From sequence record NC_134264.1: a stretch of 64,000 nucleotides of DNA. One strand, 5' to 3'. The position numbers were made by a program, and so were the translations under genes. The notes under the pieces were generated by a model that saw nothing but the letters and a program-made list of their open reading frames with translations, made no database searches and was not told where the DNA came from. Positions 38,133 to 48,582 of the stretch are shown one piece after another; the first letter of the stretch is position 1, and each line of letters begins with the position of its first letter. Origin of the DNA: Escherichia phage Lindwurm.

Positions 38133-38900
38133 TTATTCAGCAGCCGCAGCTTTTGCATCCAGTTTAGCACGCTTAGCGGCACCATCATAGTCCTTAGCAA
38201 CCAGACCACGACGAGACAGCATAGATTTAACACCCCGCTCAGACTTACCAGTTTTCTCAGCAATCTCAGCAACAGTCATGTTAACCAGATCCAGACCTTC
38301 TAACAGATCTTCACGAGTTTTAGCACTTGAAGTTTCCTGTACCGGCATAGCAGCAATACGACCTTCACGAAGCAGACTCAGAGCTTTACCACGGATCTGC
38401 TTAATATTGCGACCGAAGTGAGCAGCGATAGCTTCAATAGTAGCACCAGCAACAACCTGATTAACAAAATCAGTTTCTTCATCCGGAGTGAAGGAACGAA
38501 CAGCAGCAGCTTTTTCAGTTGGCTTAACAGAAGCAGTCATTTCCAGACTCAGAATCTTACCTTGTACCTGCTTAGCACCGAACTGACCACCAGCTACAGC
38601 AGCAGCGATTTCAGCATAGGTATACTGACCAGCATGAGCGTTCAGGAAATCAACCAGTTCAGCTTCCTGCTCAGGAGTCCACGGAGATTTCTGCACTTCG
38701 TTAGCTTTTTGTACTTCAAAACCTTCTTTACGCAGTTTAGAGCCAACAGAGCGAGCAGTAACATCTTTGCCGGTTTCCGCAGCCAGTTCAGCAGCGATAG
38801 CAGCTACTTGTTCTTGAGAGATTACAGCAACACCCAGAGCAGTGGCTTTTGCTTTCAGAGACTCGGTTACACCTTCTACGTTCCAGTTCAGTTTAGACAT
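38133..38900 (-). CDS. DNA-binding protein built from four ~30-aa helix-rich repeats (T5 D5-like, putative)
   Basis: Internal repeats (e.g. TYAEIAAAVAGGQFGAKQVQGKILSL / ATIEAIAAHFGRNIKQIRGKALSL / MTVAEIAEKTGKSERGVKSML). Confidence 0.55.
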   Translation of the reverse strand: MSKLNWNVEGVTESLKAKATALGVAVISQEQVAAIAAELAAETGKDVTARSVGSKLRKEGFEVQKANEVQKSPWTPEQEAELVDFLNAHAGQYTYAEIAAAVAGGQFGAKQVQGKILSLEMTASVKPTEKAAAVRSFTPDEETDFVNQVVAGATIEAIAAHFGRNIKQIRGKALSLLREGRIAAMPVQETSSAKTREDLLEGLDLVNMTVAEIAEKTGKSERGVKSMLSRRGLVAKDYDGAAKRAKLDAKAAAAE

Positions 38901-39675
38901 TATTATTTTTCTCCAATAGTTCTTTAATCGACAGGATTTCTATCCCATTCGTTTCGGCTTTCTTATAAGATGAGGAAGAACGCTTCGATTCATCCTCACA
39001 GATTAGGTATTTGACGTCTTTAGTAACGGATTTCTTAACCGTATATCCTAGACCTTCTAAATAGTTTGTTGCATCCGTTCGATTTGCAAAATCTTGCAAA
39101 GATCCGGTAATACATACCGCGATTCCATTTGGCTGGGCAATTAATTCATCTGTAATGATGACGTCAGCTTTAGTGCCCTTAATACCGGTTGAAAATTTCC
39201 ACGGTAGTTCGATAACATCCTTGCCTTGTGGGGAATTTAGCCAGGCTTTATAATTTTCTCCAGCCTTGCCGTCAGCCTTCACATCGTGGAAGCTAGTGCA
39301 ATTTTGGGATAATTTCTTTGCTGCAACCTCTCCAATTAGAGAGATTCCTAAAGAACCGAGAACTGAACCAAAGTCAATGTCTCCGCGAACTTTAGTATTT
39401 AATTCGCTAATTAGCTTAGCGGCAACCTTGCTACCCACGGCTCTAACCAAATCTTCTTCGGTTAGGTAAAATAGTTCTGAAATCTTCGTCAGCTCCAGCT
39501 TCTCAATAGTTTTTGGGCCAAAGCCCTTTAACTTCATTTTTGTACAGAAGTTCTCAATTAACTTACTTGATTGCGCTGGACAGTTGGACTTATTCCGACA
39601 GAATAATTGTCCGTTGACAAGATCTAGCTTAGAACCACAAGAGGGACATTGTGTTGGAATTTCGATTTTCATCAA
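38893..39675 (-). CDS. NAD-dependent DNA ligase, C-terminal subunit (Zn finger, HhH, BRCT-like)
   Basis: CPSCGSKLDLVNGQLFCRNKSNCPAQ zinc ribbon at N-terminus; HhH-like GFGPKTIEKL; own promoter upstream. Confidence 0.8.
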   Translation of the reverse strand: MMKIEIPTQCPSCGSKLDLVNGQLFCRNKSNCPAQSSKLIENFCTKMKLKGFGPKTIEKLELTKISELFYLTEEDLVRAVGSKVAAKLISELNTKVRGDIDFGSVLGSLGISLIGEVAAKKLSQNCTSFHDVKADGKAGENYKAWLNSPQGKDVIELPWKFSTGIKGTKADVIITDELIAQPNGIAVCITGSLQDFANRTDATNYLEGLGYTVKKSVTKDVKYLICEDESKRSSSSYKKAETNGIEILSIKELLEKNNNV

Positions 39676-43156: not shown

Positions 43157-43615
43157 TTAATTTGGATAGAGTTCGGACTTAAAATTAGCCCTAACTTTTT
43201 TAGCCTCTTCTATAGTATTGCACTGCTGGTACTTACGAATAGATCCTTTCTGCATTAGCACACAATATTTATCGCCCCTCATGTAAATATTAGGCTCGCC
43301 CAACTTATTGTCTTTACGTACATTAATATTGTGCATTTGCTTAGATCTATTGGAGTCTTCTAGATTCTCTATAAAGTTGCAATCTTTAATCCTGTTTTTG
43401 TGATCTATCTCTTCTGGTATATATCCCTTATGGTATAAGAATACCAACTGATGCTCTCCCCAGTGCCTACGCTTAAACCCTATTCTTATATACCCTTTAT
43501 GTTTACCACCGGCAAACTTACCTACTAGACCCTTCTGTCTTGTTTTCTTCCATTTAAGGTGGCCTGTTTCAGGATCATACTCAAAAGCCTCTCTAACCTC
43601 TTCCTGTGTTATCAT
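43157..43615 (-). CDS. HNH homing endonuclease (152 aa)
   Basis: YDPETG...FLYHKGYIPEEIDHKNRIKDCNFIENL; paralog of 59013..59561. Confidence 0.8.
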   Translation of the reverse strand: MITQEEVREAFEYDPETGHLKWKKTRQKGLVGKFAGGKHKGYIRIGFKRRHWGEHQLVFLYHKGYIPEEIDHKNRIKDCNFIENLEDSNRSKQMHNINVRKDNKLGEPNIYMRGDKYCVLMQKGSIRKYQQCNTIEEAKKVRANFKSELYPN

Positions 43616-43853
43616 TTTCTTTAATCAATTCTCCCAATTCTCTATAGATTTGATCTAACTCAAAAGATATACGTAGTGATACACTTTGCTTTCTCTGCTT
43701 TAGCAACCATGCGCCTATGCCATTTATGGATGCTAGTCTAGCAGGAACCACCCTACATAGCTTCTCCGTAGTATCATAAACAGGAACTTTACGTTCTTTT
43801 ACTGGGAACTTCCTTGTTTCCCATTTTTTATTCTTCACTGTCATTTCTAGCAC
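43593..43853 (-). CDS. hypothetical small protein (86 aa)
   Basis: ORF overlapping both neighbours; weak. Confidence 0.3.
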   Translation of the reverse strand: MLEMTVKNKKWETRKFPVKERKVPVYDTTEKLCRVVPARLASINGIGAWLLKQRKQSVSLRISFELDQIYRELGELIKENDNTGRG

Positions 43854-46617
43854 CTAGCTCTGCCATTGCTTCATCATGCATATGTTTTTCCTCATCAGTC
43901 ATAAACTTATACGGGATTGGCATACACTCGATTTTACAATAGGTTCTGTACCAGTCTACAATATTCTCCGTGTTCATATCCTTACCAATACCCATCATAC
44001 CAAGATACATTCTTGCATATTTTGGGTTAGCACTCTGACCTGTTTTAAGGAAGAAATCTTTCTTCTTACCTTTCAGGGCTTCTATGAATGGTTTGATAGT
44101 GACATTTGAACACTTCTTAATATCTTCCCAGAACATCTCGTGCATTTTATGGAAGAATGCCGCTCGATCATTCGGTTTATCCTTGATATATTGTTCGACA
44201 TGCTCAACTGTTACATCTTTAATAGACTCAAGATGATAGTAGCGAACAAGAAGTAGTTTAGCTTCATACGCATCTGCATGGCGTGGAGCACAATAATCAG
44301 GAGTTGAATACAAAATAGCTTTGATTCGCTCTTCCGTATATTCCTTACCAGCACCTTCGATAGTTCCCCAGCTTTCACTGAAAATATCAATAGTTGCACC
44401 CTGATCAAGCAAGTAATAACGTAAAGTACTAGTATAGTTTCTAGATTCCAGCTCTCTACGACGTGCGTATAATTGCTGTGCTAACTCTAGCCAACCTTCA
44501 TCAATGTTATATTGCTCAGAACCTGCGGAGAATCCACTCGTAGATTTATCAATAAAATAATAAATGTTCTGAGCGCCGCGGTCGCGCCTGATTGCTTGAA
44601 AACGCATGTTTGGCGCTTGGTTGCTGGTTCTAGTAATAACGAATACGTTATCAAAGTAGTTGAAGTCAACGCCACTCGTTACGGATGGACTACATAATAA
44701 GCAATCAATTTGTTGGTCAATCAGCTCATTAGTTGTGTAATCCAGAATACGTCGAATATCTACATCGGATGTAGAATTTGAGTGGATTTCCTTAACTAAC
44801 GCACCCGTATTACGACGCAATGCCATGCCCTTCTCATTCAGTTCATCCGGTCCACAGTCAGATACTAGGATAGATTTCTCACCCATCTCTAGAGAGGTCT
44901 GAAGTGCAACCCAAATACTAGATTCATCAGGGAACTCATAAGCATGGGCTTTTGACAGCATTTTACGGTGATGATTATAAAATGCAACCGGTTTATCAAA
45001 CTCAATCAAAGAACCATATGCTTCAATTGTTTCTGCACTAATATCCCCATCAGATAATATAATGATTTTTGCAGTTGCAAGAATATCCCGAAGAACCTGA
45101 ATACATTCACGACGTTGTTTAACAACCGGGGCGAATAATAGGTCATTCATTACAGCATCACATTCATCGATAAAGATTGCATCAATTTGACCAATAAAAC
45201 TCTTGAACTTATGCAAAGAGTGAATAGTTGTGGACATACGGTCAATAGCACCACGCTTAAAATTAAGCATATCTACAGACTTATCATATTGCCCTGCACT
45301 AAATTTCTTAGCATTTGAAGATACCAGTGCTCGAGTATTGGTAATTGCTAAGAAATTACCTTTAATAACTCCTGAATCTAACCAACGCACAACCGCCGTA
45401 GTTTTACCTGTACCTAGACTTGCTTTTACAAAAGTCATATAACCTTCTGGTGGTACAGTATTTAATTTCAAGAAGTTATCAGTTTCTAGAGAATTAGTTT
45501 CTAGCTTTTTAAGTGGAATACCTTTTAAAACATCAGGTATATCGCGTTTAGAATTATTAACAAACGCTTTCAGAGCCTGTTTACGACCGTTATTAAAGTA
45601 ATCTTGAATATTACGACTATTATCTTTAGTTGCAATATATTCTGATAAGGCTGGACGGATTTCTTTTTCTAGCCATGCAAAATCAACACCATCCTCTAAA
45701 GCTCTGTGATAGAGTTTAGGAATAATACGTAGATACACTCCATCCTCAGCTTCTTCTAGTTCGCTGATAGTTTCCTCTACTTTATCAGAGGCAGCTTTTT
45801 TACCTTTAATTTGGTCGAGTAAAGAGTAAAACTCCTCCTTAAACTCACCTCTAGTTGTTTCATAGTCAACCAGATTATTGGGTAAATTTACTTTAGAACC
45901 CTTAACAAATACCAGACGTGAAGCACCCTCCGCTTTAAACGGATCTACTATACCATCGGTAAATAACGGATCTGCAAAATAATGGAGCTGTACGGAAGAG
46001 TAATAAGCTAAGTCGGCAATATCAAAGCCATACTTTTGTCTACTACTTTCGTTGATAGATGTAAATAAGAATTTGATTTGACCCTGAGTTACTTTAACAT
46101 TAGATTCTAGTATTAAGTGCATTCGGATACCTGGTTTTAGCCCAGCCGAAGACGATGCATGAGCGATAAACCCTGCATCAAGGGGAAACATGTCCTCACT
46201 AATACTATTTAACATTCTAATAATATGTCGAGCCATGCCAACAAGATCAAACTTGTTACAACCACCTGTATCTACAATACCATCCACATCCATTGCAATT
46301 ATATGACTTGGGTTAGATACATTAAAGTTGCCCTTCTTACGTCGCACATTATTTTTAGGTGCAAGACATCGACCTCGTACCGCAACGATATGAGGGTCAG
46401 ACGTTAAACGTCTCATAAGAGGAAGCATTTCTACTAGGGTTTGAGGATCAACTTCATCAATTACATCAAACTTGAAGGGCATTGAAGCTGGTTTACCTTC
46501 AGGATGCTTTGAAGAAAATCTTTTAGCAAAAAGATAGTCTTCTGCTTTAACTTCTCGCCAATTGCCTGTGGCTAAATCGCGATGAAATCCTGCATGACCT
46601 TGTAGGATTGAGAACAC
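43828..46617 (-). CDS. SF2-type helicase / replication origin-binding-like protein
   Basis: Walker A SLGTGKTT, Walker B IFIDECD; start moved to GTG 46617 7 nt after AGGAG (first-start call at 46695 is TTG without RBS). Confidence 0.65.
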   Translation of the reverse strand: MFSILQGHAGFHRDLATGNWREVKAEDYLFAKRFSSKHPEGKPASMPFKFDVIDEVDPQTLVEMLPLMRRLTSDPHIVAVRGRCLAPKNNVRRKKGNFNVSNPSHIIAMDVDGIVDTGGCNKFDLVGMARHIIRMLNSISEDMFPLDAGFIAHASSSAGLKPGIRMHLILESNVKVTQGQIKFLFTSINESSRQKYGFDIADLAYYSSVQLHYFADPLFTDGIVDPFKAEGASRLVFVKGSKVNLPNNLVDYETTRGEFKEEFYSLLDQIKGKKAASDKVEETISELEEAEDGVYLRIIPKLYHRALEDGVDFAWLEKEIRPALSEYIATKDNSRNIQDYFNNGRKQALKAFVNNSKRDIPDVLKGIPLKKLETNSLETDNFLKLNTVPPEGYMTFVKASLGTGKTTAVVRWLDSGVIKGNFLAITNTRALVSSNAKKFSAGQYDKSVDMLNFKRGAIDRMSTTIHSLHKFKSFIGQIDAIFIDECDAVMNDLLFAPVVKQRRECIQVLRDILATAKIIILSDGDISAETIEAYGSLIEFDKPVAFYNHHRKMLSKAHAYEFPDESSIWVALQTSLEMGEKSILVSDCGPDELNEKGMALRRNTGALVKEIHSNSTSDVDIRRILDYTTNELIDQQIDCLLCSPSVTSGVDFNYFDNVFVITRTSNQAPNMRFQAIRRDRGAQNIYYFIDKSTSGFSAGSEQYNIDEGWLELAQQLYARRRELESRNYTSTLRYYLLDQGATIDIFSESWGTIEGAGKEYTEERIKAILYSTPDYCAPRHADAYEAKLLLVRYYHLESIKDVTVEHVEQYIKDKPNDRAAFFHKMHEMFWEDIKKCSNVTIKPFIEALKGKKKDFFLKTGQSANPKYARMYLGMMGIGKDMNTENIVDWYRTYCKIECMPIPYKFMTDEEKHMHDEAMAELGARNDSEE

Positions 46618-47116
46618 AACAATACTCCTGTGTTGGAAATGAAATAAGTTTTCTTTAGGACTATTCAGAAAGAATAGAACAACTGTTACTGTCAATTTCT
46701 CAACAAATTAATTGCAAATACTGAAGTGGGGTGGCAACTTCCACTTTCACGCTGCGCTGCTGCTTTGCTATACCGCACAAATCCTTGAGGATGGCCGCTA
46801 AGCCAGATTTGCTCACCTAATGCTTCATATACTAGCTCATACTAGATGCAATATAACTTACAGAATCACGTCTCGGAGTTTTTCACTCCTCCCGTCTCAC
46901 TTCACAACCACCTCTATCTAGGTTGCTTCGAGGCCTTACCAGGGTTCCTACGGGACGCAGATCGCTAAGTATTCTATTAACTATTTGTTTAAAAACTAAC
47001 ACGTAACAGTTAAAACAACCCTTAATGGGGCAGCCTAACTGTTCCGTATCGCGGATTGTAAACAAGAAAAATTAGCAAAATCAATTTTTACTAATGTCTC
47101 TCAATTCAATATAAAT

Positions 47117-47145
47117 ATTATATCAAGATTTTGGGCATCCTGCAA
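47117..47145 (-). promoter_or_regulatory. sigma70-like promoter (TTGCAG-17-TATAAT) at head of long non-coding leader
   Basis: Read on - strand; transcript would run ~500 nt before next CDS. Confidence 0.55.
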
Positions 47146-47236
47146 GTAAAATTTTCCGGATGGTGCTATCATTGGTCTTGAGTACGGATAAAACCGAGCC
47201 AAAATGACTCGGTAATCAGAGTTCAGCTAATAAAAA

Positions 47237-47629
47237 TCATTCATCATTTAATCCCGGAACATAGATCCCAACACGGTTTAATTGTTCTTTAGCTTCTTTG
47301 AGAATATCTGGAGTGTACTCCCAAATATCATCTTCCACCTGTAAAAGATGGGGCGAACAACCATCATCCGGCACACGACATATGGCCAAACCACGTGGAT
47401 GGAACAAAGAGAAGTTTAGGGCAACAATCAAGCCCATAGCAGACAATTCATTCCAATCCAATTCCCATTCCCCCGCGTAGCCGGATAGGAAAACACCAAC
47501 ACAGGGATCATCTGTTTGCTGCTCAGGAAAAGTGAAGGAGGCTTGTCTTACCCCCAACCAACGTTGTAGCAGCTTCTCCGCACGTTTCACCAAACTAGGG
47601 TCAATCTGACGCCAATATACTTGTTCCAT
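47237..47629 (-). CDS. hypothetical protein, paralog A (130 aa)
   Basis: Paralogous to 47639..48067 (PCVGVFLSGYAGEWELDW...MGLIVALNF vs PCIGLIVQVEEDLEEIVGWKELDEMGLVFALNY). Confidence 0.55.
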   Translation of the reverse strand: MEQVYWRQIDPSLVKRAEKLLQRWLGVRQASFTFPEQQTDDPCVGVFLSGYAGEWELDWNELSAMGLIVALNFSLFHPRGLAICRVPDDGCSPHLLQVEDDIWEYTPDILKEAKEQLNRVGIYVPGLNDE

Positions 47630-47638
47630 TATGCCTCC

Positions 47639-48067
47639 TTAGGCAGTTAAACCTGGGATCATATACCCGAAACGTCGAAGTTTCTGAATCCCCTCATTTA
47701 CTTCTTCCGGTGAGTAAGACCAACCATAACGTTCATTAATCTGAAAACCAGGAGATTCACTAGTTTTATAGTTAACAACTAGGCGATGCTTAGCAGGCAT
47801 AAACAGCTTATAGTTTAACGCAAAAACTAAGCCCATTTCGTCTAACTCTTTCCAGCCCACAATCTCTTCAAGATCCTCCTCTACCTGAACAATTAAACCA
47901 ATACAGGGAGCCTCATCAATATCATCTTTAAAAGCAAAGGAGATTTCGTTATTCTCACACCATATTTTCAAAGAGTTAATAGCCTCATTATACAGGCTAG
48001 CCGGGAGAGTACGCCAAAAGTTAACTAAAATTGGGTTAGCTTCTTTAGAGAATACATTATTGAACAT
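47639..48067 (-). CDS. hypothetical protein, paralog B (142 aa)
   Basis: Tandem paralog of 47237..47629; C-terminal RFGYMIPGLT vs RVGIYVPGLN. Confidence 0.55.
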   Translation of the reverse strand: MFNNVFSKEANPILVNFWRTLPASLYNEAINSLKIWCENNEISFAFKDDIDEAPCIGLIVQVEEDLEEIVGWKELDEMGLVFALNYKLFMPAKHRLVVNYKTSESPGFQINERYGWSYSPEEVNEGIQKLRRFGYMIPGLTA

Positions 48068-48069
48068 AT

Positions 48070-48582
48070 TTACACCTTAAATTGTTGCAAGGATTTACAC
48101 ATTTCAAGATTTGGGCTAAATTCTAGCATATAGCTAACAGCTTTTAAATCTTGAAGATTTATCCCAGTCCTACCGTTGACTATAACCGTTGGATACTGAT
48201 ACATCATAGCACCCGCATCATCAAGCACACACCAATGTTTGAGCTTATGCTTTTCAACGAAGCGAAGAACAGAATTACCCCTAGATAATCCACCCCCAGT
48301 AAAATCCGTTGTACCAAGAAAACGATCGATAAGACCTAATCCGGTCATAATCTGAATGTTCTCCATCTCATTTCTGACAGAGAACCAAGATGATACTCCA
48401 ACAATCATTATTGGAGAAGGACGAATAAAGTCCTGAAAAGCCTTGAGAAGCGGTTTGAAAACCCAATCACTTCCAAAGAAAATCTTTTCATCATCAGGCG
48501 CATGATATTGGGAGATGCTCGAATTGAGCACCCCATCAATGTCTAGAAAAATAATTGGAGTATTACTTATTTCCTGACACAT
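48070..48582 (-). CDS. HAD-superfamily hydrolase (possible nucleotidase/phosphatase)
   Basis: HAD motif I FLDIDGVLN near N-terminus; ~170 aa. Confidence 0.6.
   Translation of the reverse strand: MCQEISNTPIIFLDIDGVLNSSISQYHAPDDEKIFFGSDWVFKPLLKAFQDFIRPSPIMIVGVSSWFSVRNEMENIQIMTGLGLIDRFLGTTDFTGGGLSRGNSVLRFVEKHKLKHWCVLDDAGAMMYQYPTVIVNGRTGINLQDLKAVSYMLEFSPNLEMCKSLQQFKV

Follow-up and report, generated by a model that had tools for sequence, protein, structure and literature searches.

The lambda N transcript and the T7 early messenger RNAs (mRNAs) begin with long structured leaders, which are processed by RNase III at a double-stranded stem. Here we describe a large structured RNA at the head of a helicase gene in the T5-like coliphage Escherichia phage Lindwurm (NC_134264.1), of which a stretch of 64,000 nt (hereafter the window) was studied. 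The RNA lies in a gap of 619 bp (46618..47236) between the helicase gene (43828..46617, minus strand) and the nearer of two DUF7415 paralogs (47237..47629, minus strand, and 47639..48067); every gene around the gap is on the minus strand. The original prediction, made from the sequence alone, had set the gap between a paralog pair and an origin-binding-type helicase gene, and the positions of the open reading frames (ORFs) bear this out. The helicase is a homologue of T5.108/obp, a biochemically characterised bipolar SF2 helicase termed "D2" and a proposed replication initiator (Wong et al., PMC3632103). The gap encodes a structured non-coding RNA, the helices of which are kept by compensatory substitutions on the transcribed strand. 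We tentatively favour the reading that this conserved, structured minus-strand RNA acts in cis as a processing or regulatory leader of the helicase gene.

The likeness to the lambda N leader and the T7 RNase III sites consists of an early sigma-70 promoter, a place at the head of an early operon, an untranslated sequence and a long imperfect stem (here 30-41 bp) before the first gene and, if the cis reading holds, of processing coupled to downstream gene expression. The T5-like leader differs in being 2-5x larger and in having a ~210-nt multi-helix core that they lack; moreover, no nut-like boxes were recognised in it. The T4 gene 32, gene 43 and RegA operators are likewise RNA elements before a replication-protein gene, an arrangement that could allow autoregulation. 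However, those operators are 20-40 nt long and overlap the ribosome-binding site, whereas the fold described here ends 50-284 nt before the start codon. In size (>300 nt), many covarying helices, conserved loop motifs and a function unknown at discovery, the leader resembles OLE, GOLLD, ROOL, HEARO and raiA, some of which are phage-borne. Unlike these it is fixed 5′ of one gene in one phage family and has a cassette centre, and it matches none of their Rfam models. We file it as a new family within the large structured non-coding RNAs and 5′ leaders.

Thirty coliphage and Salmonella-phage leaders (29 distinct sequences) were aligned (alignment A3), a consensus structure was obtained with RNAalifold and pair counts were made independently on A3. 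The consensus comprised 93 pairs, in which 99.8% of cells held standard pairs, compared with 36-49% when the partner was slid by 1-3 columns. Nineteen pairs were changed on both sides (1-4 in the slid controls), and the covariation score of 0.243 (0.024-0.059 slid) was reached by none of 500 shuffles. The clear cases of covariation are those where flanking invariant bases fix the alignment. The leaders fall into two types, A (including this window) and B (including T5 and S114), each of which was also analysed alone. Type A gave 65 pairs with 6 compensatory changes and 3/585 cells broken, and type B gave 64 pairs with 4 compensatory and 5 one-sided changes, all of the latter via G-U, and 2/320 cells broken. 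The covariance analysis with T5-like homologues that the original prediction had proposed returned a conserved fold.

The helices are described by their position in the leader, numbered from the putative transcription start such that leader position n is window position 47111-n; all are on the minus strand. P1, the 5′-terminal hairpin (leader 9-47, 47064..47102), has 16 pairs and is 100% paired in 29 sequences. It is followed by the P2 domain (leader 52-96, 47015..47059), whose conserved motif ACGGAACAGUUAGGCUGCCCC is found once in the window, is invariant in the 30 type A and B sequences and is kept in Klebsiella and Pectobacterium phages, with a G-C to A-U compensation in Klebsiella. P3 is a long-range rod in which a 5′ arm (leader 99-143, 46968..47012) pairs with a 3′ arm (leader 389-431, 46680..46722). 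In the window the two arms form a duplex of -33.5 kcal/mol (RNAduplex, z -6.4), and position 104:431 of P3a covaries between G-C, G-U and A-U. The rod encloses a ~320-nt domain, inside which P4 closes the ~210-nt multi-helix core with P7. The strands of P4, CUGCGU (leader 151-156, 46955..46960) and GCGCAG (leader 354-359, 46752..46757), occur in three forms in perfect co-occurrence: CUGCGU/GCGCAG, CUACAU/GUGUAG and CUGUGU/GCACAG.

Within the core, the P5 three-way junction and the P6 hairpin (leader 156-236, 46875..46955) carry compensatory changes within type A, G-C being replaced by A-U in three sequences for P5 and in four for P6, and the P5-P6 fold recurs in the Pectobacterium phages DU_PP_V and My1. 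A pairing of UCCCGU with ACGGGA, pointed out in the original prediction, is real (46950..46955 with 46890..46895) and is P5. The P7 hairpin (leader 299-334, 46777..46812) carries the invariant CUUAGCGG at 46795..46802 and is built of a 4-bp inner and an 8-9-bp outer stem with a bulge on the 3′ side; in the outer stem, 4/8 pairs show a compensatory exchange between types A and B. P8 (leader 365-387, 46724..46746) shows a compensatory U-A to G-C change in type A (AAGUGG/CCACUU to AAGGGG/CCCCUU), and its loop motif, AAGUUGCCACC, recurs in the phages of Klebsiella and Pectobacterium. P9, CUAUUC-UUUCU-GAAUAG (46661..46677), separates the rod from the ribosome-binding site; it is invariant in 29 sequences and retained as a hairpin in Klebsiella (CUAUC/GAUAG) and DU_PP_V (CUUUCC/GGAAAG). 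A second complementarity proposed for about 47005-47045 is present in the sequence (47001..47047, 12 nt, 92%), but the helix is not maintained and its arms partner elsewhere. Leader 99-108 pairs with 422-431 instead of contributing to a 64-75/99-110 helix, in which position 104, an A in 15/29 sequences, would mismatch.

Sequence similarity is largely gone across genera, BLAST aligning only the first 103 nt between the two Pectobacterium phages. The structure was followed in seven Enterobacterales-phage lineages. A hairpin in the first 60 nt was found in 7/7 lineages with differing sequences (z -2.6 to -6.9). The P3 arms were likewise found in 7/7, at ~55 nt before P4 and ~60 nt after P8, as an interrupted duplex of 30-41 bp (-28 to -38 kcal/mol, z -3.0 to -7.2). 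Shuffled arms did as well in 0/300 cases in six lineages and in 2/300 in the seventh. CUUAGCGG is present in all seven, its distance from the promoter being constant, and it holds the corresponding position in the phages of Providencia and Proteus; the inner 4-bp stem of its hairpin covaries (GGCU/GGCC, GACU/GGUC, GCCU/GGGU). The flanking or outer arms of P7 pair better than the shuffled mean in 7/7 lineages, with individual p values of 0.008-0.14. A de novo column-pair covariation scan of the cross-genus MAFFT alignment returned mostly misalignment noise. We regard P1, P3 and P7 as the family-wide core, to which P4 probably also belongs, and the interior of the core as lineage-specific.

Several observations place this structure on the transcribed strand. 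The paired cells of A3 contain 17.2% G-U against 0.07% A-C, and in P3 46/259 pairs are G-U. The consensus folds to -65.5 kcal/mol with 93 pairs in the sense direction and to -52.1 kcal/mol with 80 pairs in antisense; in 7/7 lineages the sense strand has the lower fold z-score, and antisense P3 arms are 5-23 kcal/mol weaker than sense arms. Moreover, one relative (L017) has four substitutions in the 3′ arm of P3, all of which are U-A/U-G interconversions and as such neutral only for an RNA of the transcribed strand. Taken together, the G-U pairs, fold z-scores and arm energies favour the transcribed strand and hence an RNA rather than a DNA element.

The two leader types share an invariant 5′ part (leader 9-103) and a near-invariant 3′ part (~422-496), and have centres of ~300 nt that are nearly equal in length and less than 50% identical. 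Leader 9-103 (47008..47102) is 100% identical in 30 phages, the helicase genes of which share 70-90% nucleotide identity. On this comparison of sequences, the centre is exchanged as a cassette. Motif 1, ACRGAACAGUNNGGCUGC (leader 64-81), and CUUAGCGG (leader 309-316) stand 218-228 nt apart in both leader types and in the phages of Klebsiella and Pectobacterium, with an intervening identity below 50%. GCTTAGCGGC, which forms the core of the invariant hairpin motif, has two more exact copies in the window, at 38171..38180 and 39414..39423 (plus strand). These copies lie antisense inside minus-strand genes (homologues of a Myb-like factor and of ligase subunit B) and were judged coincidental.

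Two further arrangements were seen among the relatives. One leader (L038) joins a type B centre to a type A 3′ tail, suggesting recombination within the leader. Three others (L012 3411-4003, L029 3410-4003 and L039 3413-4003), two of type A and one of type B, contain an insertion of ~97 nt between P1 and P2 (leader ~48-145). A duplicated UUUUUCUU flanks this insertion, which includes a covarying stem of its own (AUUUACGG/CCUGUAAAU against CCCGUAAAU) and looks like an optional or mobile RNA module.

The helicase was found in 908 phage records (tblastn), and a non-coding gap of 590-860 bp stands directly upstream of it in every Demerecviridae genus checked. Besides Tequintavirus and Epseptimavirus, these include T5-like phages of Klebsiella (598 bp), Pectobacterium (590-600 bp), Providencia (711-715 bp), Proteus (820 bp) and several Vibrio lineages (636-860 bp); the gap of this window shares 99.8% identity with Escherichia phage phiAPCEc03. 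A strong promoter opens the gap in the lineages where one was sought and found, and the genes further upstream differ among lineages. No such gap accompanies the more distant helicase homologues of 33-37% identity in metagenomes. Pattern scans of IMG/VR and metagenomes returned the RNA motifs in T5-like contigs, together with chance matches, and no new lineage. Vibrio T5-like phages have leaders of 610-750 nt, again with a promoter and a hairpin at the 5′ end, hairpins that covary and a centre that is swapped; they could not be shown to be homologous to the enterobacterial type. In the VspSw_1-like Vibrio group, a module of ~130 nt is present twice in tandem upstream of the helicase (upstream regions L060 ~230-420, L067 ~250-500, L068 ~240-430).

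Transcription of the leader is predicted from an early-class sigma-70 promoter at 47117..47145 (minus strand), where TTGCAG (47145..47140) and TATAAT (47122..47117) are separated by 17 nt. The -10 region is TATAATATT, the upstream tract is A/T-rich and the discriminator is ATATT, which has been reported for all known T5 early promoters (PMC7472727). A simple promoter scan misses this site because the -35 hexamer matches at only 3/6 positions. The original prediction had nevertheless named it, and its homologues are a T5 promoter annotated in NC_005859 (58999-59073) and the "putative early promoter T5P32" of T5 records. At the same position, Proteus phage has a perfect TTGACA-17-TATAAT and Providencia phage a consensus or near-consensus promoter. 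Upstream lies the intrinsic terminator of the DUF7415 operon (47185..47213, minus strand; CCGAGUCAUUUUGGCUCGG then UUUUAUCC, inverted repeat I19), the homologous site of which is annotated as a rho-independent terminator in T5 records and in HdH2. Transcription would start at about 47110. The RNA is probably co-transcribed with the helicase gene, remaining untranslated for ~490 nt, close to the ~500-nt leader that had been predicted, and running unterminated into the GTG; a scan of 46618..47110 returned no terminator-like site. In five relatives (L013, L018, L040, L077 and L079) the upstream gene, terminator and promoter are replaced by other sequence. The junction lies just upstream of the first transcribed hairpin (AUAAAUGAGAGAC against AUUGAAUUGAGAGAC), so that the 5′ end of the RNA is retained while the promoter is swapped.

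The composition of the gap is unexceptional. It had been described as GC-rich, but its GC content of 0.388 is the window average (~0.39), with a local peak of 0.445. Rfam 15 (4227 models, including riboswitches, RNase P, tmRNA, 6S, group I and II introns, OLE, GOLLD, ROOL and HEARO) was searched against 45500..48500, as the original prediction had recommended. The sole match at E<=10 was a 16-nt chance match (E 8.3), and no gathering-level match was obtained in seven related loci; the RNA belongs to no Rfam 15 family. An RNase P-like reading, prompted by the motifs ACAGAAC..GGCU and GGCUUA, was rejected, as no RNase P model scored even E<=10. Nor did ARAGORN identify any transfer RNA or tmRNA gene across the whole window, in agreement with the earlier failure to fold a transfer RNA in the gap. 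Three T5 GenBank records and the other records inspected have nothing annotated between the promoter and the helicase, except spurious small ORFs in some, and the literature search returned no description of a T5 leader RNA, of an origin at the site of the gap or of a T5 transcriptome.

A sequence of events by which the RNA could act as a leader can be proposed. The early sigma-70 promoter, standing past the terminator of the upstream operon, would start a minus-strand transcript whose first ~490 nt are untranslated and folded. The compact fold, G-rich and C-poor, may shield this long untranslated stretch from Rho and nucleases. By analogy with the lambda N leader and the T7 early mRNAs, the P3 rod may be an RNase III-type processing site; it provides the imperfect double-stranded stem of at least about 20 bp that characterises such leaders. 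Cleavage in P3 would part a stable structured RNA from the helicase mRNA and thereby set the amount of helicase and of the downstream replication proteins, and the invariant 5′ domain and the CUUAGCGG loop may contact a phage or host factor. A terminator-based attenuator or riboswitch leader was also considered and rejected: the scan of 46618..47110 showed no terminator-like site, and the alternative pairing of leader 64-75 with 99-110 is unsupported by covariation.

A number of results count against a cis-acting leader of this kind, or limit what the structural tests can bear. The distance from the rod to the start codon is 50 nt here, ~170 nt in Providencia and ~284 nt in Proteus, and only a weak, unconserved hairpin forms over the Shine-Dalgarno sequence and the start codon, neither of which is expected of a direct role in helicase translation. 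Moreover, past the structured RNA and 36 nt before the helicase start, Proteus phage (L035 3935-3964) carries another perfect sigma-70 promoter, TTGACA-18-TATAAT, so that the helicase there need not depend on the leader promoter. The variable distance and the Proteus promoter are at least equally compatible with an RNA that has an independent role and, with the weak hairpin, keep a stable trans-acting RNA and an origin transcript alive as rivals. The literature search returned no expression, processing or phenotype results for the region. As to structure, A3 was scored with a fold derived from the same alignment, and the covariation comes partly from two deep clades (types A and B), so that the counts of changed pairs are not independent events. 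A covariance model of P5-P6 (R1) found its seed lineages only, even with filters off, and had no match in T5-type, Klebsiella, Providencia, Proteus or Vibrio phages; this sub-domain is therefore lineage-specific. A structured P7 model built on types A and B (R2) scored weakly at the correct positions of the DU_PP_V, Providencia and Klebsiella phages (E 0.3-1.3), missed My1 and Proteus and reached no E below 0.3 in held-out lineages, where a sequence-only P7 model (R3) had no matches. The longest single long-range helix was within chance when compared with shuffles, and this test was replaced by the anchored arm-duplex test because helices of 10-12 bp are expected by chance. A wide-window energy test does not separate P4 from chance either; P4 rests on the anchored compensatory changes, and its placement in Providencia and Proteus is tentative.

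The first rival is an independent, stable non-coding RNA, in which a domain of ~330-420 nt is excised or accumulates and acts in trans, as a partner of the helicase or replisome or as a decoy for a host factor, its place beside the helicase reflecting synteny or co-expression only. The variable distance from core to start codon and the separate promoter of the Proteus helicase suit this view, as do a size and complexity typical of large non-coding RNAs rather than of simple leaders, and a U-rich tract after the rod in Providencia phage. The first 100 nt also exceed the neighbouring coding DNA in conservation and the loop motif is invariant, which suggests sequence-specific recognition. However, no terminator-like site follows the RNA in this window or in the Providencia or Proteus phages, and no target is known. 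The RNA was never seen apart from the helicase gene, either in the loci compared or in the pattern scans, and E. coli genomes and plasmids contain no similar sequence, so that nothing suggests mimicry of a host RNA. On balance we consider a trans-acting RNA unlikely.

The second rival makes the locus the T5 origin: the structured RNA would form a persistent R-loop or pre-primer for the phage family-A DNA polymerase, and D2 would load there. ColE1 RNA II, the T7 primary origin and T4 oriF/oriG offer precedents. As in those systems, a strong promoter and a ~500-nt structured untranslated transcript lie by replication functions, here next to the gene of the proposed initiator helicase, and the phage polymerase belongs to family A, as do the enzymes by which those primers are extended. 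RNA and helicase stay together throughout the phage family, and the type of leader goes with the sequence type of the helicase. In addition, the final ~55 nt ahead of the Shine-Dalgarno sequence are rich in A/T, and the origins of T5 have yet to be defined. In contrast to those systems, the leader has no antisense regulator promoter (no RNA I-like, plus-strand promoter-like site was found in 46618..47110), no recognisable hybrid-forming site or sequence mark of an RNA-to-DNA transition, and no skew signal: the GC skew is negative on both sides of 47 kb, and it switches at ~25 and ~52 kb, where gene orientation changes. Iterons are also lacking, the gap containing only two-copy imperfect repeats of 8-17 nt and chance quality. 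Furthermore, the strand bias of recombitrons suggests dominant unidirectional replication from one genome end (PMC10055335). An origin transcript appears to us improbable, though it deserves to be kept in mind. A wider form of the idea, to which we give a similarly low standing, is that of a new class of large (>400 nt) phage RNA acting directly in replication initiation. Such an RNA would be a ColE1-RNA-II-like pre-primer or R-loop former, or a partner that recruits or positions the bipolar D2 helicase, and its swappable cassette would be a specificity determinant co-evolving with the helicase. If true, this would pinpoint the long-sought T5 origin and provide an RNA-guided initiator in a classical model phage.

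The original prediction had offered a structured RNA or a DNA element such as an origin as candidates for the gap. The first stands, given the compensatory changes, their strand specificity and the lack of an Rfam relative, and the second finds no support, given the absence of iterons and of a skew switch. A DNA-level element (a duplex origin, protein-binding array or cruciform) with an RNA fold that has no role could draw on the inverted repeats present in the DNA and on the adjoining gene, annotated 'replication origin binding'. However, the helices tolerate and interconvert G-U pairs, which are A-C mismatches on the other strand, in duplex or cruciform alike. There is moreover no array of repeated binding sites, and unrelated sequence of equal length and fold can take the place of the centre. 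We therefore think such an element very improbable.

Still less probable is that the gap holds one or more missed small protein-coding genes. ORFs of 33-60 codons do exist there, and OR896837 annotates three 'hypothetical proteins' in the region. However, no ORF is conserved among the relatives compared. The largest, a TTG-initiated ORF of 60 aa that had already been noted as the only one and as not credible, has no ribosome-binding site, is cut short by stops in relatives of 99% identity and does not occur in T5 or in the phages of Klebsiella and Pectobacterium. Substitutions in the gap track base-pairing rather than codon structure. Least of all can we credit a functionless spacer with chance complementarity, for although chance alone should give single contiguous long-range helices of 10-12 bp at such a length, conservation across genera extends to the gap, the motif spacing and the fold, the compensatory changes lie far above the controls and the first 100 nt of the leader surpass the flanking genes in conservation.

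The gene downstream of the leader heads the replication gene cluster and begins with a GTG start (46617..46615) preceded by the Shine-Dalgarno sequence AGGAG (46625..46629; together 46615..46629, minus strand), which gives it the length of its annotated homologues. Its product of 929 aa matches the herpesvirus origin-binding-protein helicase family over residues 394-533, and the N-terminal 390 aa (45448..46617, minus strand) have no match in Pfam or PDB. The protein is labelled 'DNA primase C-like' in some GenBank records. The N-terminal motifs IAMDVDG and SSSAGLKPGIRMHL presumably resemble those of archaeo-eukaryotic primases; we take this as a lead only, which, if true, would bear on replication priming. 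At the 3′ end, the helicase gene is overlapped by an HNH endonuclease gene (Pfam HNH_3) and a small ORF (43157..43615 and 43593..43853, both minus strand), much as hegI (T5.109) overlaps the helicase 3′ end in T5. The presence of the two varies among relatives, and they are therefore likely homing elements.

For annotation, the spurious "hypothetical proteins" in the gap should go, and in phage engineering the gap should not be used as a neutral insertion site in T5-like phages. To our knowledge, RNAs as large as this with a conserved structure are few in bacteria and phages, and each so far has pointed to unusual biology. The present one, of ~490 nt with more than a dozen conserved helices, is carried by hundreds of sequenced T5-like phages, many of them candidates for therapy or biocontrol. 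T5 is a founding model phage, and how its replication starts, how D2 is controlled and what its early leaders do are all questions that this RNA touches.

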